Assembly (NCBI GenBank): GCA_020697515.1
Contig: JAIXNB010000021.1
Span: 1-8,682, forward strand
From: Nanobdellota archaeon
Lineage (GTDB): Archaea; Nanobdellota; Nanobdellia; Nanobdellales; Nanobdellaceae
DNA: 8,682 bases
Direction: 5' to 3'
This document shows positions 1-8,682 of the stretch, piece after piece; the stretch's first letter is position 1, and every line of letters begins with the position of its first letter. Both the position numbers and the translations under genes were made by a program. Under the pieces are notes generated by a model that had not been told where the DNA came from, did not search any database, and saw nothing but the letters and a program-made list of their open reading frames with translations.

Positions 1-954
1 ATCTTACCTTCATCTTCATTAATCAAAGTGCTAGATGAAGAAGGTAATCCTATCAATTTCTGTTACGAACAACCCAACGGAGAATGTAATACTACTCCTT
101 CAGATATTATTTGGGTTAAAGTCCCCTATATACCTGCTAATGGAAATACTATTTTAAGTATATTTCCTTCAGATACTAATCAAGCTGTGAATGGAGATCA
201 AGTATTTGAGTTCTAAGATGATTTTAAGATATTGAATACAAGTAAATAGGAAGTTAATAGAGCTAAAAAAGATCCAAACTTAGAATGTAAAGCAGAAAAT
301 GGTATACTATGGTTGGTTAAGAAAAGCAACGGGAAGGGTTGTAATATAAAAGCAAAGAATTTTAATGTGAAATATAATGATATGTATGTAATAGATTTTA
401 GGTTTAAGATAGATTATGTTTGTGGGACAAGTTATGATGGGGATGGAATGGCTCTGGTTATTGATGGGAATAGCGCTTCTCCTGGAGATGGGTGTGGTAA
501 GGGATTTGGTAGCCATCCATTGGGTACTAAGCAAGGACTCGTAGTTGAAATATTCACAGATGCATATGATTCTAGTACATATAATTTAGGAGGTATAGCC
601 ATTGATGATGACACAGGATGGTGTATCCTTAATCAAGATAATGTCAAAGCCTCTATAACTGTTTATGGAAATAACAAGAGATATGATTTAAATGATGGTA
701 TAATCACAGTTTATTTAACTGGAGATAAGATTAGAGTTCATTATAAAGATCTTAATCCGGCTAATGGTTATTTAGAAGATACTATTGAAGCTAATGTTTG
801 GGATCCTAATGGGAAAGGTTATTTTATGTTTGGAGCTGGTACTGGAGGCTCTAACTGTCCTAATGATGGAAGGGATTCGGCACATGGAATAGATTGGGTT
901 AGGGTTAGGAAATATGCTGATCGAGTGTCTAGAGTAAGGATCCAAATATCTTAA
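1..954 (+). pseudogene. DUF2341 + LamG/concanavalin-like surface protein, disrupted by two in-frame stop codons; the 5' end lies outside the window
   Basis: Frame 1 is open from nt 1. It translates as ...SDIIWVKVPYIPANGNTILSIFPSDTNQAVNGDQVFEF*DDFKILNTSK*EVNRAK...GIDWVRVRKYA. These are hallmarks of DUF2341 followed by a LamG-like domain (WVKVP, FxF-DDF, SKW, DWVRVRKY). In-frame TAA is at 214-216 and TAG at 247-249. Track ORFs 28-216 and 313-954 share this frame and start only on GTG/TTG. Confidence 0.6.
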
Positions 955-982
955 TTCATAATAGTAATACATATGCAAAACA

Positions 983-991
983 TTTTTTAAA
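983..991 (+). promoter_or_regulatory. TATA-like box (TTTTTTAAA) for the ttuA-like gene, implying a leaderless transcript
   Basis: The element is centred about 25 nt upstream of ATG 1012, with no purine-rich SD in between. The background is AT-rich, so specificity is low. Confidence 0.35.
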
Positions 992-1011
992 CAAGGATAA
1001 AAAAGCTTAGA

Positions 1012-1932
1012 ATGAAATGTTCCTTTTGCAATAAAAAAGCAATTTACAATGATGGTGAAAATAGATATTGTAAAGAACATTTTATTGAGTATTTCGAGAA
1101 AAGAATCTTAGATATTATAGAAATTTTCAATTTAATAGAACCCGGGGAGAAAATTGCGGTAGCAGTTTCGGGAGGAAAAGATTCAGTCAGCTTATTATAT
1201 CTTTTGGATAAATATAAAGAAGATTTAAAGATAGATGTGGTTGGGATACATATTGATGAGGGGATAAAAAACTATAGGGATAAACTGAAAAACTATCTTT
1301 TAGATCTTGCCAAAAAACACAATTGGGAAATAAAAGTCTATAAATTTAGAGATTACTTTAGGCTTACTTTAGATGATAGTGTAAAAATCGAAAGAAGACT
1401 TAAGCCATGTACAATTTGTGGGGTTTGGAGACGGTGGTTAATGTGGAAAGCTGCTAAAGATTTAGGTGTAGATAAAATAGCAACAGCTCACAATCTGAAT
1501 GATGAGGTTCAAACAATATTCATAAACCTTTTTGAGGGGAATATCAAAGATTTTGTTAAAGGTGGGCCGATAGTTGGAATAGTGGAACATGATTTTGTGC
1601 CTAGAATAAAACCATTCTATTTAGTTACTGAAAAAGAGACTACAATTTATGCTTTGATAAACAAAATAGATCCTCCTTGGGTAGAATGTCCTTATATATA
1701 TGGGCAAACTAGAGATGAAATAAGGAAATGGTTATATAAACTAGAAGAAGATTTTCCAGGTTTTCATAAAAAAGTCATTAACAAGTATTTGAGAATATTG
1801 AATAAGTTAAAGATATCATATAAAAAGACAAATAGGATAAATTTGAAACCATGTAAATATTGTGGATATCCTACATCTAGAGAAATGTGTAGAGCATGTG
1901 AGATAAAACTAATATTGTTAGGGCATAAATAA
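1012..1932 (+). CDS. ttuA: tRNA 2-thiolation PP-loop ATPase, TtuA/Ncs6 (Ctu1) family
   Basis: PP-loop SGGKDS at 1168-1185. N-terminal CxxC...CxxH and C-terminal CxxC...CxxC zinc fingers. Fe-S ligand-like PCTICG and ECPY. ATAHNLNDE motif. The 306-aa architecture is collinear with Pyrococcus TtuA as I recall it. Confidence 0.8.
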   Translation: MKCSFCNKKAIYNDGENRYCKEHFIEYFEKRILDIIEIFNLIEPGEKIAVAVSGGKDSVSLLYLLDKYKEDLKIDVVGIHIDEGIKNYRDKLKNYLLDLAKKHNWEIKVYKFRDYFRLTLDDSVKIERRLKPCTICGVWRRWLMWKAAKDLGVDKIATAHNLNDEVQTIFINLFEGNIKDFVKGGPIVGIVEHDFVPRIKPFYLVTEKETTIYALINKIDPPWVECPYIYGQTRDEIRKWLYKLEEDFPGFHKKVINKYLRILNKLKISYKKTNRINLKPCKYCGYPTSREMCRACEIKLILLGHK

Positions 1933-2012
1933 CTACCGAAGTTTAAGATGATATATTCTTAATTCCAGTTTTATACTATTTATACCCTTTTAGGGGAACA
2001 ACGAGATACTCT

Positions 2013-2064
2013 TCAGAGAAGATGGCGCTCTTCATAAAAATTCTGCCCCGATGGATCTCATCAT
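2013..2064 (-). ncRNA. C/D box sRNA, unit B (2'-O-methylation guide)
   Basis: Minus strand reads C (A)TGATGA (2058-2064), 12-nt guide gatccatcgggg, D' CAGA (2042-2045), 6-nt spacer, C' ATGAAGA (2029-2035), 12-nt guide gcgccatcttct, D CTGA (2013-2016). Confidence 0.75.
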
Positions 2065-2113
2065 CAGCGAGTGTGCGGTTCTTCATTGATTCCGATCGCA
2101 ACAATATCATCAC
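2064..2113 (-). ncRNA. C/D box sRNA, unit A (2'-O-methylation guide)
   Basis: Minus strand reads C GTGATGA (2107-2113), 12-nt guide tattgttgcgat, D' CGGA (2091-2094), 4-nt spacer, C' ATGAAGA (2080-2086), 12-nt guide accgcacactcg, D CTGA (2064-2067). This is the canonical archaeal box spacing, sitting in a GC-rich island within AT-rich DNA. Confidence 0.75.
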
Positions 2114-2130
2114 TCTCTATATACTTTTAT

Positions 2131-2136
2131 AAAAAA
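2131..2136 (-). terminator. T6 run on the minus strand downstream of tyrS (candidate oligo-T terminator)
   Basis: Plus-strand AAAAAA at 2131-2136 gives U6 on the tyrS strand, about 57-62 nt after the stop. T runs are common in AT-rich spacers, so this is tentative. Confidence 0.3.
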
Positions 2137-2192
2137 TAATTATAATAATTATAAGATTTAACCTAACCCTAATAGATCATGCTTTCGTCCAG

Positions 2193-3497
2193 TTACCTAG
2201 ATATTTTGATCCGTTGTAGTTCTTCTATATATCTCTTCCCATCCTTTTTAAAATAACATCTAATGGGCTCCAGTAATTTTAACAGCCAATTGGCTACAGC
2301 ATTCTTTAAATCTAATGGGTGTATTCTACCACTTATCCAATCTCTCCTTAAATCCCATAACTTTGTATAGACCTTCTGTTCTTTAGTTTTCCCATTTATT
2401 ATTTTGAATTCTATCTCTTTAAACCCTAAATCATAAAGATCTGAAAACTCTCTTTCAATCCTTGAGTAAACCAAATCCCAATCTATCTCATTTTTCTTAT
2501 TTTTATCTTCAATTACTTTAACGAGTTCATGTTTTTCAACACGTGGAAGCCCTAGTTCATTAGGTGTTACTATACTATTCTCTAATGCTATAAGGAGAAG
2601 ACCAATATTCTCCTGTTCTCTGAATATTACATATTCAACTAGTTCCCAGATAGGGTTAAATTCTGTTTCTTTCATAGGACAGAATGCCTGCTTTATTTTA
2701 GATAGTATCTCTTCCTCAGAATCATGTATAAATATTGCAGACCCGGGTATAGATTTTGACATTTTTAATTCAGATAGATCTTCCTTAATCTTCCTCTTAT
2801 CCTTCTCCTTTTTTAATTTTCTATAGATGTCCCATGATAACCTTAAATTGGTAATTAGGATATGATGTACTGCAAGTAGAGGGTAATCTATTTTATTAGC
2901 ATACTCCATTGCGATCACATGGGCTTTTCTTTGGTCTATACCAGCATGGGCTATATTAATATTTTGAAAAACAATATCCGCAGCTTGCATTAATGGGTAT
3001 ACTAACCAGGCCGAAGGAATTGATTCTGATTCTCTTCTACCCATAATTGTTATGGATCTTAGAACCCTGCTTAATGTAGTTTCTTTCCCAATCTTAATAA
3101 CTTCGGCCCAATAATCGTTGTTGTATATATCCGAAGCTAAAATAAACTCGGTTATAGTTGGGTCTCCACCTACAGCTTCTATAGATTTTGCTATTGCATG
3201 GGAAAAGTAACCTTTAGCAACTTTTCTTATAATGTCCATATTACCCCCCAGCTTATTATTTATCCAAGCATGCCAATCTGCCATGAAAACTTCAGTTTTA
3301 ATGCCTGCTTCTTGGAAGTCTCTTATCTTAGCCCCAGAAAATATACCTGTTCCTAAATGCACAAATCCGGATATTTCAAACCCTATATAATGTTTGAGTT
3401 CTATCCCTCTTTCGAATATATCTTTTAATTTCTTCTCTCCAAGAACCTCAATAGTAGGTTTTCTCCACAAAAGCACATGTATTCCCTCAATATCCAT
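2193..3497 (-). CDS. tyrS: Tyrosine--tRNA ligase (archaeal type, enlarged to 434 aa)
   Basis: Class I aaRS signatures: HYIGFEISGFVHLGT (HIGH variant HLGT at 3348-3359), ADWHAWINNKLGG, KMSKS (2751-2765). The C-terminal IHPLDLKNAVANWLLKLLEPIR is almost identical to the M. jannaschii TyrRS C-terminus as I recall it (LHPMDLKNAVAEELIKILEPIR). Confidence 0.9.
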   Translation of the reverse strand: MDIEGIHVLLWRKPTIEVLGEKKLKDIFERGIELKHYIGFEISGFVHLGTGIFSGAKIRDFQEAGIKTEVFMADWHAWINNKLGGNMDIIRKVAKGYFSHAIAKSIEAVGGDPTITEFILASDIYNNDYWAEVIKIGKETTLSRVLRSITIMGRRESESIPSAWLVYPLMQAADIVFQNINIAHAGIDQRKAHVIAMEYANKIDYPLLAVHHILITNLRLSWDIYRKLKKEKDKRKIKEDLSELKMSKSIPGSAIFIHDSEEEILSKIKQAFCPMKETEFNPIWELVEYVIFREQENIGLLLIALENSIVTPNELGLPRVEKHELVKVIEDKNKKNEIDWDLVYSRIEREFSDLYDLGFKEIEFKIINGKTKEQKVYTKLWDLRRDWISGRIHPLDLKNAVANWLLKLLEPIRCYFKKDGKRYIEELQRIKISR

Positions 3498-3520
3498 TAT
3501 ATCGGAAACATCTCAAAACA

Positions 3521-3529
3521 ATATATAAG
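3521..3529 (-). promoter_or_regulatory. TATA-like box for tyrS (minus strand CTTATATAT)
   Basis: Centred about 28 nt upstream of the ATG (3497), with no SD. This is consistent with a leaderless mRNA. Confidence 0.4.
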
Positions 3530-3799
3530 TTTTATCCTAACTCGCAAGTAAAATAAATTAATTTTAGCTGAGTGTTGGTTTTAATCCATCTAAATTTTAT
3601 TGAGCTCGTTAATAAACTACTGTAACAGCGTTTTTTATTATAGGATAATAATTTTTAACAACCAAATATTCACTATATCCAACAGCAAGCTTTCTAATAA
3701 GGAGCACAGTCCTCTTTAATTTCACTTTCAGAAAGTGCATATAAATGCTGAAACTATAGATATTTATTCTTAAGCGCGCGCCATGGTTGCTTAGGATTC

Positions 3800-4003
3800 C
3801 TAAATATGCTGCTCATCTATTTTAATCTTTTTGGCATACTCACCCTTTAGTTCTTTCATCTGTTTTAGTGCTTCTACGATGGATATTTCGCTCCTACCAA
3901 GTTTTTCTTCTATTTCCTTAAATTTATTAATAATACTTATATCAATACTTTCTACCACGGTATTTATCCTTTCCTCAAGAATAATATGAATTCGTGTGGA
4001 CAA
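3800..4003 (-). CDS. Doubtful small ORF (67 aa, charged and helical), possibly not coding
   Basis: The ORF is open only from a TTG at 4003. The first in-frame ATG leaves only 19 aa. There is no correctly spaced SD or TATA, and I recognise no motif. Confidence 0.2.
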   Translation of the reverse strand: MSTRIHIILEERINTVVESIDISIINKFKEIEEKLGRSEISIVEALKQMKELKGEYAKKIKIDEQHI

Positions 4004-4006
4004 ACA

Positions 4007-4012
4007 TTTATA
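4007..4012 (+). promoter_or_regulatory. TATA box (TTTATA) positioned for the GC-rich RNA candidate
   Basis: Its centre lies about 26 nt upstream of the abrupt switch from AT-rich to GC-rich sequence at 4036. The element is near-palindromic, so its orientation is not proven. Confidence 0.45.
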
Positions 4013-4035
4013 CAGCGATCTCTATAGCTGATCTG

Positions 4036-4144
4036 ACCTCCTCCCGCCCTTTAGGACAGGGCACCCGCAGGGAGCACCCCGCTCCATCGTCTCGCGACGG
4101 TTTCACGGGTCGATTGGTGTGATACCTCTACATCTCAGCTTTTT
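4036..4144 (+). ncRNA. GC-rich structured small RNA of unknown class (~105 nt); strand is tentative
   Basis: A sharp GC-rich island runs 4036-4130, bounded by the TATA at 4007-4012 and a T5 run at 4140-4144. Four GC helices: 4046-4050/4058-4062, 4063-4067/4106-4110, 4071-4075/4081-4085 and 4086-4091/4096-4101. Together they form a hairpin plus a three-way junction. There is no ORF. Confidence 0.55.
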
Positions 4145-4643
4145 AAATGTTACTAAAATTAGAAACTGTTTCGAACCCTGCAACCGTATTGACTTTTCCA
4201 TTATTTCTTTTCTCTAATTGATTCTAACTAACGCTTTAATACTACTTTATAAATTCAAGAATCTTGCATAAGGATATTACATTTATAACATATCTTTTTT
4301 GGTATGTTCACTCGTGGTATTCGGCAGAAAATATTATTACACATTTCAATTGCTGATAAGGCTCATTATTACTTTTTTCCCTAAAGGCCTAAGGCATAAT
4401 AACAATTTCCTTATCCGTAGATACCATTATTTTTAGTGTCCTAGGTTATGATACATAGAGGTTTGCTTGTCCATAAGTATAGTATTATAAATTAATCCTT
4501 CAAGGTCCAATATTTTCACTAATGATATATTTGAGTAGAGAAAGTTTTCTATATCGATGCATTTTTATGGTGCTATCAGAGTTGAAAACTGTTTCGAGCT
4601 CTAAAGATTATTTAAAAGGATAAACGATAAAATGTAACTTCCT

Positions 4644-5546
4644 TTAGGAGGAAGGTAAAAATAGTGGATGGATGTCAATGCAAATAGTACAGCTCAACAC
4701 TTTGAATGCAGTATATTTTGTTATTTCTTTAAGAAAATAAATATCATCCTTATCAATGACTTCATATACACAGTTTGCATATTTTAGCAGGTAGAGAGCG
4801 TTTCCTTCTAAATCTGTCATAATATCTGCACATATAATGTCGAAGTCTGTCCTTAATATTTTTTCTGATATTTCTCTCTCGTACTTTTCTCTACTTTCCC
4901 ACGTTTTAATTAACTCAACACCACAAGATATATCAGAGTTCGAACATATTACATTAAATGCATCGTACAATTCTTCGCTATCTAGCAGATACATGTCATC
5001 GGTTATAAACCCACAGTTGAAACCTTTCCGGGTACAATAATTAGTTATATTATTAAGTAAGCTAACTATATATTGTTTTGGAATGTTCCATTCTTCCTTA
5101 ACAATTATATGAAATAGAATGTTCTTTAGATCTAGGTTATATGTATCTATGAAATTTTTAAAATATTCAAAGTCTAATCTGAAGCATTGAGATCTTCCAT
5201 AATATGTACCGGAGTACTCACATTTTTTATCAGTAAAATACCAATTATGTTTTACTAGAAACTTTATTTTGTATTTTCTTCTAAACTTATTATATACCTC
5301 AATAGTTCTATTATCTAATATAGGGTATTCATCTGTGTCATATAATATTATAGAATAATCCATATACTGTTTATCTAACAACCGTATCGCTTCATCCTTT
5401 ACATTGTATGTATTTATTGCTACATACTTTATATGTAACTTGTGAGTATCTATAAAGTAAGTATCCGTAAATTTACCATACAATAGATACACAATACCTA
5501 TTATGAACATTAAAACTATCAATACTATGAATTTGGCATACTTCAT
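4644..5546 (-). CDS. Hypothetical Cys-rich protein with an N-terminal membrane anchor (orphan)
   Basis: A 300-codon ORF in stop-rich AT-rich DNA. It has an ATG start with TATA-like TTTATATATAA about 24 nt upstream and an N-terminal hydrophobic helix, KFIVLIVLMFIIGIVYLLY. There are about 12 Cys. YVAINTYN...SIILYDTDEY is only a weak GT-A/DxD-like resemblance. Confidence 0.6.
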   Translation of the reverse strand: MKYAKFIVLIVLMFIIGIVYLLYGKFTDTYFIDTHKLHIKYVAINTYNVKDEAIRLLDKQYMDYSIILYDTDEYPILDNRTIEVYNKFRRKYKIKFLVKHNWYFTDKKCEYSGTYYGRSQCFRLDFEYFKNFIDTYNLDLKNILFHIIVKEEWNIPKQYIVSLLNNITNYCTRKGFNCGFITDDMYLLDSEELYDAFNVICSNSDISCGVELIKTWESREKYEREISEKILRTDFDIICADIMTDLEGNALYLLKYANCVYEVIDKDDIYFLKEITKYTAFKVLSCTICIDIHPLFLPSS

Positions 5547-5798
5547 TATATAACTAAATTAAAATTATATATAAAATTTATATTAAATAAACAAAATTAA
5601 TATTATCTAGATCTACATTATAACCGAAAGCCATACCTTCTAGGTAAGGGATGAGAAAAGTTTAAAATATATATTATAGATTGCTATTTTGTCATCTACA
5701 ATCTCAAATTCTCTGTAAAGGGATAAAGATTGATAGATCGGAAACTTATCCTGGATCGAACGAAAAGAATATAGCTATAAATTTCTCTACTCTATTTG

Positions 5799-5898
5799 GA
5801 ACCCCTTCCCTTTAGAGTGGAGAGAGGACTAGTTTTATAACTATCTTATTTATATTATATTAATCTGACCATCTCTCGTCCTAAAGGGAGAGGGTTTC
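5799..5898. repeat. Inverted pair of ~30-nt CT-rich/TTTA/GA-rich hairpin modules separated by a ~40-nt AT-rich spacer
   Basis: Left arm 5799-5829 is ggaaccccttccctttagagtggagagaggac. The reverse complement of right arm 5869-5898 is gaaaccctctccctttaggacgagagatgg. The shared blocks are gaa-ccc, tccctttag and gagaga-gg. Confidence 0.65.
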
Positions 5899-5968
5899 AG
5901 TTGTAAAAATTAACATTACTTTAACAGAGGCGAATGCTTATAATATTGACTATATAAATCTAAGAAAT

Positions 5969-6907
5969 ATGTTATCAAAAAGAGATTTAGAATTGATATT
6001 TAAAGAAGTGAACAATGTTAATAATACTACTGAGAAGAAAGAGGGAGAGTATGAGGTTGACATTGAATTACTTAATCTAGAAGAGAGTGTCTGTAAAGAC
6101 TTAGATGTTACCTATATAGATTCCAGTTATGCTAGCGGAGTAATTGGTCCTTATGCATACATTTATTCTCGAGCTGTTTCAGTTTCTCCTTACACAATCA
6201 AGGAAGATAGAGATTTTTTACTGTTATCAGATACATTCTTCTATGCAGAATCTTATGAAGGAGAAAAATTAGAGATATTAGATGTTTCAGATATATCTGG
6301 GATTATTTCGAAAAATCTAGAGTATAGACTTGCTGTAGAAGCAGATACAGAATTCGTAGTAATAGATGGGTCACTTTTATCAGACGCTATCTTCTATAGT
6401 AATGGTATAGAATATAAGATACTTGAAGATAAGATAATGAGCAGATATGAAGAGTTCTTAATAAATTTTAAAAAGATTATTAACACTTATACTTTTTCTA
6501 TTGCTAAGAGAATTCTTGGCGGGAAGTTTATATGCTCAAATACAAATTCAGAGAACTCAGATTTTATGTTATTACTATCTAAATATCCAGAAGAAGAATT
6601 TTATACTCAGATATTTATACAGGATATGAGACCAAATATAACGGTTATAAATGGAGGGATAAAAGCTCTATATTTTAGACCTAGAGATGGAGACCACATA
6701 TACAGATTAGAAACTTTTGGAAATACTCCCAACGAAAAGATACTTGAATTCCTGTGCAGTACTGTTAAAAAACAAAAAAGATATCCAATGGAACTTAAGT
6801 TGGCTCATAATAGAGCGAAAGTAACTTCTAAGGAGAAGTATATCTTAGAACATTATTTAAAAAATAGTTTAGGACTTAGCAAAACAGTTGATTGGGAAAC
6901 AAAATAA
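5969..6907 (+). CDS. nurA: NurA-family 5'-3' nuclease
   Basis: VTYIDSS (D51), NLEYRLAVE, FVVIDGSLL (D133) and RYPMELKLAHNRAKV (H280) fit the NurA catalytic D-E-D-H pattern. The gene sits directly upstream of herA on the same strand. Confidence 0.7.
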   Translation: MLSKRDLELIFKEVNNVNNTTEKKEGEYEVDIELLNLEESVCKDLDVTYIDSSYASGVIGPYAYIYSRAVSVSPYTIKEDRDFLLLSDTFFYAESYEGEKLEILDVSDISGIISKNLEYRLAVEADTEFVVIDGSLLSDAIFYSNGIEYKILEDKIMSRYEEFLINFKKIINTYTFSIAKRILGGKFICSNTNSENSDFMLLLSKYPEEEFYTQIFIQDMRPNITVINGGIKALYFRPRDGDHIYRLETFGNTPNEKILEFLCSTVKKQKRYPMELKLAHNRAKVTSKEKYILEHYLKNSLGLSKTVDWETK

Positions 6908-7010
6908 GAACTTTAAAGATCCTACATATTAAATCCTTATCACTTAAACATTTAACCGTCTATCCGTAGATTTCTATTATATATACTAAAACTTGGCTTT
7001 TAATAGTTAA

Positions 7011-7021
7011 CATTTTAATAC
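7011..7021 (+). promoter_or_regulatory. TATA-like box (CATTTTAATAC) for herA
   Basis: Centred about 26 nt upstream of ATG 7042, with no SD. No T run follows nurA, so co-transcription with nurA is also possible. Confidence 0.35.
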
Positions 7022-7041
7022 TGGACTTATTAATAATAAAG

Positions 7042-8661
7042 ATGAAAGGAATAGAAGTTGGGTATATAATAAAGGAGGCTTCTCCAGAGCATTTCTACTT
7101 TGTTATAGATCCTTCTAAACGAAATCTTGTTAGTATAGGAGGTATATTAAAGATTTACATAGATGAAATCCCATATTTTGCTTTAATAGAGGATATATCA
7201 TCGGTAGCAATGGAAGAAGAGAGGCTCTTTGAGTATAAAGCTATAGAATATCTATATGGTAAATTAAAAAAACCCCAGTATATGATATGCGGAAAAGCTA
7301 TATTTATTGGATGTATTAGAAATGGAGTAGTTTTATCAGAAAAACCTCAGATTCCCCCTTTACCTGGTGATAGAATATACATACCTTCCGAGGATGAAAT
7401 GGAAAAGTTGTATTCGTTTGAAGACAAAAGACTTGTAGTTCCTATAGGGAAAATAAATTTACTGAAAAAAGAATATGATATTTATCTAAAAATTAAAGAG
7501 TTAGTGATAAGACATACAGGGATATTTGGAATTACCGGTTCGGGGAAATCTACCACAGTAGCACATCTTGTTAAAGAATTAACAAATAAAAACATTCCAG
7601 TTGTGATATTTGATATCCATAGAGATTATATAGCCTCATTTGACAATGTAATAATAATTACATTCGATGAAAAGGAAAAGAAATTCTTGGAATCTGTTCT
7701 GAGCGAAAGAGGATTAAAAGGTAAAGTTGTCGTTGGGAAATTTAAGCCAAGAATCCTTAAGGATTATGTAGAGGAGATTTTAGGGGTGTCTGGAAAACAA
7801 GCTGTCCATGTCTTTAAATTATTATCTAAATTGTTATCTCTTGAGCCGGAAACTATTAGAGAGCTTTTAGATTGGTTAGATGAGAAAACTTCGAATTCTA
7901 AAGTTAATAACATTCTTAGAAATACAAAAGAAACTACAATAGAATCCTTAAAGGCAAGATTGTATAGAGTTTCTGACTGGAGGTTATTTAGAAGGAACGT
8001 GGAAGATTCTGGTGAAGATTTACTATATCTCATGGATAAGATAATGGATGATCTTAGGGTGGGTACTACAAAGATGGAAGAAGACTTCAGCTTCGATGGA
8101 GAAGAAGTTATAATGAAAACTGTGGAATCTAAAGTTAATGTAGTTATAATAGATATGTACCCTCTTTCAATAGAAGAACAGAGAATGTTATTGGATATTC
8201 TGTTAGAGTCTGTATATACAAAATACAAAAGATGGAAATTTGAAGGTAATGCAGATGTTTTAGGTATTGTTATAGAAGAAGCTCACAGATTTGCTTCTAA
8301 GGATGTTAAAACATCTACAAAAATATCTCTTATAGCGAGAGAAGGAAGAAAATTTGGTTTAGGATTAATACTAGTATCACAGATTCCCTCTAAGATACAG
8401 GAAGATATAATCTCCCAGATTAATACTTTCTTACTATTGAAAATAATAAATCCACGCGATCTGGAATTTATAAGGAAGACTTGTCCATATTTGTCCAGAG
8501 AATATTTTGAAGCTTTGACTAAGTTAGAAACTGGAAAATGTTTAATAGTTGGATTAGCTGCAAAGAATCCTGCAATAGTTAAGATAATCAAAGATGTTGA
8601 AGTTGGAGGAGCTGAAGAGGATATAGAAAAAAGAATAATAGAGAGAATCTCACAACCGTGA
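7042..8661 (+). CDS. herA: HerA-family hexameric DNA translocase/helicase ATPase (FtsK-HerA superfamily)
   Basis: The N-terminus looks like a HAS barrel (GYIIKEASPEHFYFVIDP...GGILKIYI). Walker A GITGSGKST is at 7528-7554. Walker B and sensor LGIVIEEAHRFA start at 8260. AREGRKFGLGLILVSQIPS and the C-terminal TGKCLIVG are typical HerA motifs. Confidence 0.85.
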   Translation: MKGIEVGYIIKEASPEHFYFVIDPSKRNLVSIGGILKIYIDEIPYFALIEDISSVAMEEERLFEYKAIEYLYGKLKKPQYMICGKAIFIGCIRNGVVLSEKPQIPPLPGDRIYIPSEDEMEKLYSFEDKRLVVPIGKINLLKKEYDIYLKIKELVIRHTGIFGITGSGKSTTVAHLVKELTNKNIPVVIFDIHRDYIASFDNVIIITFDEKEKKFLESVLSERGLKGKVVVGKFKPRILKDYVEEILGVSGKQAVHVFKLLSKLLSLEPETIRELLDWLDEKTSNSKVNNILRNTKETTIESLKARLYRVSDWRLFRRNVEDSGEDLLYLMDKIMDDLRVGTTKMEEDFSFDGEEVIMKTVESKVNVVIIDMYPLSIEEQRMLLDILLESVYTKYKRWKFEGNADVLGIVIEEAHRFASKDVKTSTKISLIAREGRKFGLGLILVSQIPSKIQEDIISQINTFLLLKIINPRDLEFIRKTCPYLSREYFEALTKLETGKCLIVGLAAKNPAIVKIIKDVEVGGAEEDIEKRIIERISQP

Positions 8662-8663
8662 AG

Positions 8664-8682
8664 CCTCGCCCTTTAGGGCGGG
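8664..8682 (+). other. GC-rich TTTA-loop hairpin beginning 3 nt after the herA stop, truncated by the window end
   Basis: ccucgccc-uuua-gggcggg gives at least 7 bp (8665-8671 paired with 8676-8682, one G-U). It shares CGCCCTTTAGG with the 5' part of the 4036 RNA candidate. Confidence 0.4.

Follow-up and report, generated by a model that had tools for sequence, protein, structure and literature searches.

A GC-rich island in a Nanobdellota archaeon contig reads as a solo, 5'-truncated copy of the HgcC RNA family

We analyzed an 8,682-nt stretch of DNA from a Nanobdellota archaeon (assembly GCA_020697515.1, contig JAIXNB010000021.1, positions 1 to 8,682, forward strand; hereafter the window), which contains a GC-rich island for which an earlier reading of the letters (the original prediction) had proposed an independent structured RNA gene of an unrecognized class on the plus strand. 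Judged by homology, the island is a solo, 5'-truncated copy of the HgcC family on the minus strand (4033..4134), that is, a member of a known RNA family and not of a new class. In the explanation we favor, with a probability of roughly 80%, this shortened copy stems from the right-end RNA module of an archaeal insertion sequence (IS) of the IS200/IS605 type that encodes TnpB only, and the four-helix RNA may act there as a guide scaffold. With HgcC as the right-end RNA module of a transposon, the island would be a transposon leftover. The family reportedly goes back to Klein, Misulovin and Eddy in 2002. Its function has been termed unknown (PMC5732400, PMC4615843).

Family assignment and strand

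The outline of the island was confirmed: GC content is 0.55–0.58 in 100-nt segments at 4000–4149 and 0.21–0.39 in the surroundings, and the longest open reading frame (ORF) in the island has 42 aa (3994–4122, plus strand), with none of at least 50 aa. The plus-strand features listed for it, namely TTTATA at 4007–4012, a T5 run at 4140–4144 and the CU-rich stretch ACCUCCUCCC (= ACCTCCTCCC) at 4036–4045, were all found as stated. ARAGORN detected no tRNA or tmRNA in the whole window, and an Rfam search of 3900–4300 at E ≤ 10 returned HgcC and chance-level matches only, with no C/D, H/ACA or signal recognition particle RNA, in agreement with the earlier failure to match the island to such layouts.

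The class, however, is a recognized one. In this E-value search, Infernal aligned 4134..4023 of the minus strand to the whole HgcC model (RF00062, positions 1–130) with 40.8 bits and E 3.9e-8. The gathering score of RF00062 is 50 bits, and in gathering mode the whole window gave no match; the shortfall is attributable to the missing 5' hairpin, which in the Rfam alignment is shrunk from 18 to 4 nt. An independent covariance model (R1), built from 18 relatives with the window left out, matched 4134..4033 on the minus strand with 61 bits (E 8.8e-16) and aligned H2, H3, H4, P0 and the tail (described below), whereas its best match in the island on the plus strand reached 2.8 bits. The same element in six metagenome contigs of the same locus scored 57–61 bits. 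The original prediction had itself named an Infernal hit to a known family as an outcome that would remove the novelty, and HgcC is such a hit.

Relatives (numbered with the prefix L) were gathered with DNA patterns in genome and metagenome collections. These scans yielded five genome loci, from a Methanocaldococcaceae metagenome-assembled genome (MAG), a Thermococcus MAG and a further archaeal MAG, with Rfam scores of 61–121 bits, and about 24 further loci from metagenomes. One of the six genome-scan loci (L007, NC10 bacterium) was discarded as a chance match, as was about half of the 52 metagenome matches, which lay in GC-rich coding DNA. The pattern scan of viral contigs gave 0 matches, as did a metagenome scan with a pattern specific for the short form of the element seen in the window. 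One relative, L012, shares this short form and reaches 61 bits in Rfam, which passes the threshold, as well as 71.6 bits with R1; it therefore bridges the window copy to the family.

The strand can be read from G-U pairs. In the family alignment, 98 of 1123 paired cells are G-U and would be A-C on the opposite strand, so that the structure belongs to the HgcC strand, and two G-U pairs of the window's own terminal hairpin H4 (4056/4047 and 4058/4045) are possible on the minus strand only. A TATA box ahead of the element in relatives, on this same strand, also speaks for minus. The plus-strand model can point to TTTATA and the T5 run, which bracket the island, and to a G-U pair at 4087/4100 that is possible on the plus strand only. 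However, the TTTATA taken for a promoter sits in the non-conserved flank, outside the element boundary set by at least 20 relatives, and the T5 run taken for a terminator reads on the minus strand as part of a TATA-like box, TTTAAAAA. The supposed 5' tail carrying an anti-Shine-Dalgarno motif is the reverse complement of the invariant 3' tail of the family, GGAGGAGGUCAG, which ends at the right-end boundary of the transposon; its conservation is explained by constraints on the transposon end and the scaffold, not by Shine-Dalgarno pairing. What remains of the proposed independent gene is a structured, non-coding RNA gene candidate, moved to the minus strand. A minus-strand leader, considered at the time as a fallback, had anticipated both the strand and the GNRA loop (GCGA).

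Conserved fold and covariation

Compared with the family, the window retains the conserved core: a hairpin H2 with a GNRA loop that resembles a kink-turn (K-turn), H3 of the GUUCCC type, H4 of the UUNA type and the GGAGGAGGUCAG tail. H2 (4077..4109, minus strand, as for all parts of the element) consists of an outer stem CCC/GGG, an internal loop GUGAA/GGAGC, which by its tandem G-A/A-G pairs looks K-turn-like, and an inner stem ACCGUC-GCGA-GACGAU with one A-C mismatch (4100/4087). H3 (4061..4075, GCUCCC-UGC-GGGUGC) aligns to the almost invariant family hairpin GUUCCC-UGN-GGGAAC, from which two pairs set it apart, a compensatory change of U-A to C-G and a U-U mismatch. The terminal, or right-end, hairpin H4 (4043..4060, CCUGUCC-UAAA-GGGCGGG) covaries in the family and stands 10 nt from the element boundary, which is assigned by homology directly past G4033. 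It is followed by the invariant 3' tail AGGAGGUCAG (4033..4042); GAGGAGGTCAG is unchanged in all 27 aligned copies. In a short closing helix, P0 (4112–4114 with 4036–4038), C4112, U4113 and A4114 can pair with G4038, G4037 and U4036, respectively.

Towards the 5' side the copy is decayed. Alignment to the models leaves 4115..4134 (GAGAUGUAGAGGUAUCACAC) as what remains of H1, the 5' hairpin, and of the GAUGA box: model positions 3–21 (19 nt) correspond there to 8 nt, and GAUGA reads UAUCA. The family form, a 5' hairpin (GAGGGnnn...nnnCCC) followed by the GAUGA box, is absent from the window, and L012 has the same short form. Upstream of the element, the TATA-like box TTTAAAAA (4140..4147) can be read from the sequence 6 nt from the H1 remnant, a layout that is the same in L012. 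Its position would predict a transcript start near 4116, just ahead of H2. At the other end, the flank directly 3' of the boundary (AUCAGCUAUAGAGAUCGCUG, 4013..4032) would, by analogy with TnpB-associated omega RNAs (ωRNAs), fill the slot of a putative TnpB guide, and since its first 20 nt contain no T-run, a transcript would continue into the flank. We also observed a 17-nt inverted repeat (82% complementary) between 4097–4113, on the 5' side of H2, and 4171–4187, upstream of the TATA-like box, which is relevant only if transcription starts further upstream than assumed here.

For the family, the structure (H1, P0, outer and inner H2, H3, H4) was set by hand and tested by pair counts; RNAalifold on a MAFFT alignment had missed several helices, owing to local misalignment, and was replaced. 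In the MAFFT alignment A4, from which the window was left out, 95.6% of the cells are paired, against 39–51% when the partners are slid, and 12 pairs with 60 cells show compensatory double changes. None of 500 shuffles reached the observed value on four of five measures, while on the fifth, the count of pairs changed on both sides, 40 of 500 did. In alignment A5 (38 matches), 94.4% of the cells are paired and 28 of 33 pairs carry double changes, figures that lean towards the model because this alignment was fitted to it. The covariation check that the original prediction had called for thus strongly supports the family fold. Inner H2 is the most strongly covarying helix; P0 pairing is nearly invariant in the MAFFT alignments, so that covariation is no test of this helix. 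Folding energy showed no excess over shuffled sequence (z = -0.60 for the plus and -0.58 for the minus strand); as it is no better than the shuffles on either strand, energy alone is uninformative, and the evidence against chance comes from homology and covariation.

The fold proposed at the outset is partly kept: its arm AUCGUC-UCGC-GACGGU corresponds to the covarying inner H2, whereas its hairpin GCCCU/AGGGC (4046–4050/4058–4062) is shifted in register against the conserved terminal hairpin (4054–4060/4043–4049). A natural compensatory pair at 4044/4059 in contig L006 is compatible only with the family register. Thermodynamics would permit the proposed closing helix and the GGAGC/GCUCC arm, but both compete with outer H2 and H3, which covary in relatives.

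Transposon context of HgcC in relatives

The ORFs adjoining HgcC in relatives encode TnpB (Pfam: Cas12f1-like_TNB, OrfB_IS605, RuvC); these proteins match solved TnpB and Cas12f chains and keep the motifs GVDLG, E and DRD (D/E/D). In all ten tnpB-linked copies examined (L009, L011, L013, L031, L036, L051, L052, L072, L073 and L075), tnpB is divergent from HgcC at a distance of 50–125 nt. Seven of these loci come from metagenomes or MAGs and the others from Methanocaldococcus bathoardescens, Archaeoglobus profundus and Thermococcus nautili. TATA-like boxes lie between tnpB and HgcC, and one is found 24–34 nt upstream in every HgcC copy. TnpB and HgcC divergence show a modest correlation (Spearman 0.48, from non-independent pairs), and about two thirds of the family copies are solo, with unrelated neighbors.

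The element ends are sharply defined. Similarity between family copies stops right after TCAG, and copies within one MAG match exactly from GAGGGCGG through GGAGGTCAG and become unrelated directly past GGTCAG. On the HgcC strand, the left end reads T(C/T)AC, 19–21 nt and a hairpin (L011, L075, L052, L072, L009), and the right end a hairpin and then 10 nt ending in TCAG; both ends share the hairpin in direct orientation. This is the geometry of IS608, whose ends we take to be TTAC with 19 nt on the left and 10 nt with TCAA on the right. The likeness places HgcC on the active strand of the transposon, at its right end, reading outward into the flank. In 21 tabulated family flanks, T4 runs occur in two only (L010, L038), 17–20 nt past TCAG and none earlier.

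Miniature elements were also found. L008 combines a left end, the promoter and HgcC, and about 115 nt of it are identical to the tnpB 3' side of L009, starting at TTAC/CAT. Such non-autonomous copies (L008:3730-3991, L035:1460-1740, also L028 and L038) contain part of the left end, the HgcC promoter and a full HgcC, with no tnpB. The right flank of L035 is shared with L011, a full element with tnpB; upstream, L035 carries some 130 nt of additional GC-rich sequence with several hairpins. In L011 (5915-5921), L052, L075 and L073, the tnpB frame crosses the left end in antisense up to the element edge; the tnpB stop overlaps the T(C/T)AC target motif (TCA being TGA on the other strand), and in L011 the neighboring gene begins 4 nt past this stop. 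The short-form relative L012 (1500-5132) is surrounded by toxin-antitoxin cassettes with PIN-domain ORFs and small ORFs resembling antitoxins, one pair of which is duplicated. A TnpB of another subfamily (OrfB_IS605), cut by the contig end, is found at a distance of 1.3 kb.

Transcription of the family has been documented: HgcC transcripts with mapped start sites, some within transposase genes, were described, with links to transposase genes noted for Thermococcus kodakarensis and Pyrococcus furiosus, the P. furiosus HgcC being antisense to its transposase (PMC4247193). The same transcripts were later cited as unexplained tnpB-associated non-coding RNAs (Karvelis 2021, PMC8612924).

Proposed mechanism and its weak points

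Taken together with the end geometry, we propose that HgcC would be transcribed from its own TATA promoter, divergently from the tnpB on the other strand and outward across the boundary into the flank. The four-helix RNA would form the scaffold of a TnpB guide RNA (ωRNA, also termed reRNA), the 16–20 nt or so of flank after GGAGGUCAG would be the guide, and the guide would direct TnpB to the empty site next to a transposon-associated motif (TAM). A guide function of HgcC is our inference by analogy; the rarity of T4 runs in the family flanks, the modest correlation of TnpB and HgcC divergence and the large share of solo copies would fit it. The window copy has lost tnpB, the left end and H1 and retains H2, H3, H4, the tail and the TATA-like box. 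At best it might be usable in trans or co-opted otherwise as a small RNA; at worst it would be a slowly decaying relic with a terminal hairpin still under constraint. We regard it as possible, yet tentative, that HgcC RNAs are the guide (ω) RNAs of a hyperthermophile TnpB clade in which tnpB is inverted with respect to the transposon ends and a separate promoter drives the RNA, and that promoter-bearing orphans are kept under structural selection and may program a TnpB elsewhere in the cell or host.

Several points weigh against this explanation. The window copy stays below the Rfam gathering score (40.8 against 50 bits), is without H1 and the GAUGA box, and has mismatches in inner H2 (A-C) and H3 (U-U). 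Three-frame translation of 4020–4700 (minus) revealed no tnpB remnant upstream, and a repeat search combined with blastn-short, using nine left-end sequences, found no left end in 4134–4640; with neither tnpB nor a left end, the copy is an immobile orphan. Its transcription is predicted from the TATA-like box, and the guide role of HgcC is argued by analogy. A divergent tnpB is unlike every characterized ωRNA, which lies in sense at the tnpB 3' end. Furthermore, HgcC1-3 of T. kodakarensis were described as sense transcripts with internal starts in transposase genes (PMC4247193). Homologue searches with TnpB returned no protein named for T. kodakarensis. The T. nautili tnpB is annotated at 419 aa, a length at which the start of the gene runs antisense into HgcC; part of the disagreement may stem from tnpB genes annotated too long.

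Sequence variation at the locus bears on the explanation from both sides. NCBI MAGs list the window proteins under Candidatus Nanopusillus sp., and six metagenome contigs with the same locus (L001–L006) are 98.6–99.9% identical to the window. Over 5232 nt, L006 and the window disagree at 7 positions, and two of these, 4044 and 4059, are the two partners of one H4 pair: on the minus strand, 4059 C>U and 4044 G>A turn C-G into U-A. Such a compensated pair suggests either that H4 is constrained or that gene conversion by another copy introduced it; the latter, which could account for the change without selection, would weaken the case. The same holds for a change at 4098 in L001 and L005 (two of the six contigs), which breaks one H2 pair. 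A further change, in L002 and L004, lies in a loop (4067).

Alternative explanations

The strongest alternative is that the island is a pure fossil, a dead, untranscribed and functionless right-end fragment that has had too little time to decay. We consider this a serious possibility, although one with less than even odds. A fossil would fit a solo copy with neither tnpB nor left end, the lost H1 and GAUGA box, the internal mismatches and the pair-breaking polymorphism in two contigs, and clearly decayed end remnants do exist elsewhere in the window (5798–5832 and 5865–5897, see below). It fits less well with H2, H3, H4 and a tail that are intact enough for 61 bits, with the upstream TATA-like box, with an unrelated MAG (L012) in which the layout without H1 recurs, and with a compensatory H4 double change that makes up two of only 7 differences in 5.2 kb. 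Across 4033–4134, the variation among the six contigs amounts to a broken pair (4098, in two contigs), a change within a loop (4067) and the compensated pair 4044/4059.

A host RNA co-opted without TnpB appears improbable. It could be a leader into the small ORF at 3800–3958 (minus), a K-turn/L7Ae small RNA, or a Shine-Dalgarno mimic (GGAGGAGG) titrating the 16S rRNA 3' end. The tail is presumably complementary to CCUCC of 16S rRNA, no terminator-like T-run stands between the element and the small ORF, and H2 has its K-turn-like loop with tandem G-A pairs. About two thirds of the family copies are solo and yet keep promoter and structure, and overexpression of analogous RNAs altered the growth of Halobacterium (PMC4615843). 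However, the flanks of the relatives are unrelated, so that there is no conserved downstream gene. The small ORF downstream of the element (3800–4003, minus, 52–67 aa) is called in some contigs only, has no Pfam match (searched as 3800–3958) and is frameshifted in L006 by a 1-nt insertion at 3869; it is probably non-coding. In addition, some 80 nt separate GGAGGAGG from the ORF start, part of this motif is predicted to be taken up by P0 pairing, and the invariance of the tail is already explained by its place at the transposon cleavage site.

The original model of a new-class plus-strand RNA, whose ACCUCCU 5' tail would mimic the 16S anti-Shine-Dalgarno sequence and pair with GGAGG, is hardly credible, as both covariance models match the minus strand only, the class is already in Rfam and the H4 register is contradicted by the compensatory pair of L006.

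Comparison with known systems

Our preferred explanation, a solo HgcC copy from a transposon right end, can be set beside four known systems. With HgcC itself (RF00062), the element shares H2, H3, H4, the GGAGGAGGUCAG tail, a GC island in AT-rich hyperthermophile DNA and a match over the full model; unlike the known members from Methanococcales, Thermococcales and Archaeoglobales, it occurs in a Nanoarchaeote MAG. The ωRNA/reRNA of ISDra2, reportedly described by Karvelis and by Altae-Tran in 2021, resembles HgcC in that the RNA of the relatives spans the right end and crosses the boundary into unique flank, that their TnpB keeps the RuvC D/E/D motifs, and that miniature elements retain the RNA. 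It differs in that the tnpB of HgcC loci is on the opposite strand and the RNA would have its own promoter instead of deriving from the tnpB 3' end; HgcC also shows no detectable sequence relation to known ωRNA models, and the window has no tnpB partner.

The sotRNAs of IS1341-type tnpB and the PATE RNAs (RF02656/RF02657) of Halobacterium, said to have been described by Gomes-Filho in 2015, are likewise structured RNAs of transposon ends with a right-end-like terminal tetraloop hairpin, and intergenic copies without tnpB are expressed. In contrast, sotRNAs overlap tnpB in sense, and PATEs join both transposon ends, of which the window copy has the right one only. IS608/ISHp608, which transposes as a single strand ('peel and paste'), agrees in the end geometry of the relatives on the HgcC strand, but no tnpA was seen in any HgcC locus, and tnpB is inverted, with its stop at the left boundary.

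Further insertion sequence remnants and rearrangements

At the right edge of the window (8654..8682, plus strand), a left-end-like IS start, AACCGTGAAG, is followed by a perfect family-type hairpin, CCTCGCCCTTTAGGGCGGG, which is cut by the window end. This sequence replaces the 3' end (last codons) of herA and is preceded by TCAC (8650–8653); R1 aligns there with positions 88–105 (10.5 bits), and identity to the L011 left end is 91% over 23 nt. Uninterrupted herA contigs (L065:12640-12700) read ...CCTTAC followed by AGATGAGATAG and diverge from the window at about 8646–8653. By its sequence, the edge resembles the left end of a further family member, inserted at a T(C/T)AC site, and such an insertion at 8654 would account for the end of the contig here. 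An exact protein look-up with the window HerA gave 0 matches, and no sequence past 8682 was gained. A 10-mer, AACCGTGAAG, common to the window end and the L012 flank, was set aside as not significant alone.

Two decayed remnants resembling right ends were recognized by eye: GGAACCCCTTCCCTTTAGAGTGGAGAGAGGACTAG at 5798..5832 (plus strand), set against the family consensus GGAACCCTCGCCCTTTAGGGCGGAGAGGAGGTCAG, and AACCCTCTCCCTTTAGGACGAGAGATGGTCAG at 5865..5897 (minus strand). R1 at E ≤ 10 recovered neither. Both consist of hairpin and tail, and they face each other across a 32-nt AT-rich spacer; the second lies in the zone where contig groups lose colinearity with the window. The contigs carrying a tyrosyl-tRNA synthetase (TyrRS) gene (L001–L006) are colinear up to 5717 and run beyond it into eIF-1A or SecDF contexts, while the NurA/HerA contigs (L065–L070) are colinear from 5614 onwards. 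The roughly 104 nt common to both groups (5614–5717) could be a recombination site or an assembly chimera, and the IS-end remnants lie directly beside this junction. The synthetase (2193–3497, minus, 434 aa) is a class I tRNA synthetase of the W/Y family by Pfam and a tyrosine--tRNA ligase by NCBI; as it is identical across contigs with differing far flanks, several genome arrangements coexist in the Nanopusillus population.

A polymorphic insertion was observed in pspC. In L066:13797-13850 (Nanopusillus), the gene is broken directly past GTACTTAC by a palindromic mini-element of about 55 nt, composed of a perfect inverted right end (CTGACCTCCTCCCCGCCCTAAAGGG) and a forward, degenerate right end ending in GAGGTCAG. 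The sister contig L065:13760-13800 has the empty pspC site, which makes this a clean insertion polymorphism at TTAC. Finally, the palindromic box GAAACTGTTTC occurs twice (4164–4174 and 4587–4597) within a 32-nt direct repeat of 72% identity (4148–4179 and 4571–4602). Both copies belong to the extended AT-rich spacer that separates the HgcC element from a 300-aa ORF, and the box could be a protein-binding site.

Implications

The claim of a new RNA class is hereby removed: the island is a divergent member, on the other strand, of a family listed by Rfam from the early 2000s onwards. At the same time, the comparative work provides a concrete and testable function for HgcC, as an outward-reading right-end RNA of a TnpB IS with inverted gene, transcribed from its own promoter. 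Should TnpB indeed use HgcC as its guide, these elements would make guides independently of tnpB mRNA processing, and compact, thermostable pairs of nuclease and guide with a T(C/T)AC-type TAM would become testable. In the Nanoarchaeote population itself, such elements are present as several remnants and as insertions that vary between contigs, in part at rearrangement breakpoints.

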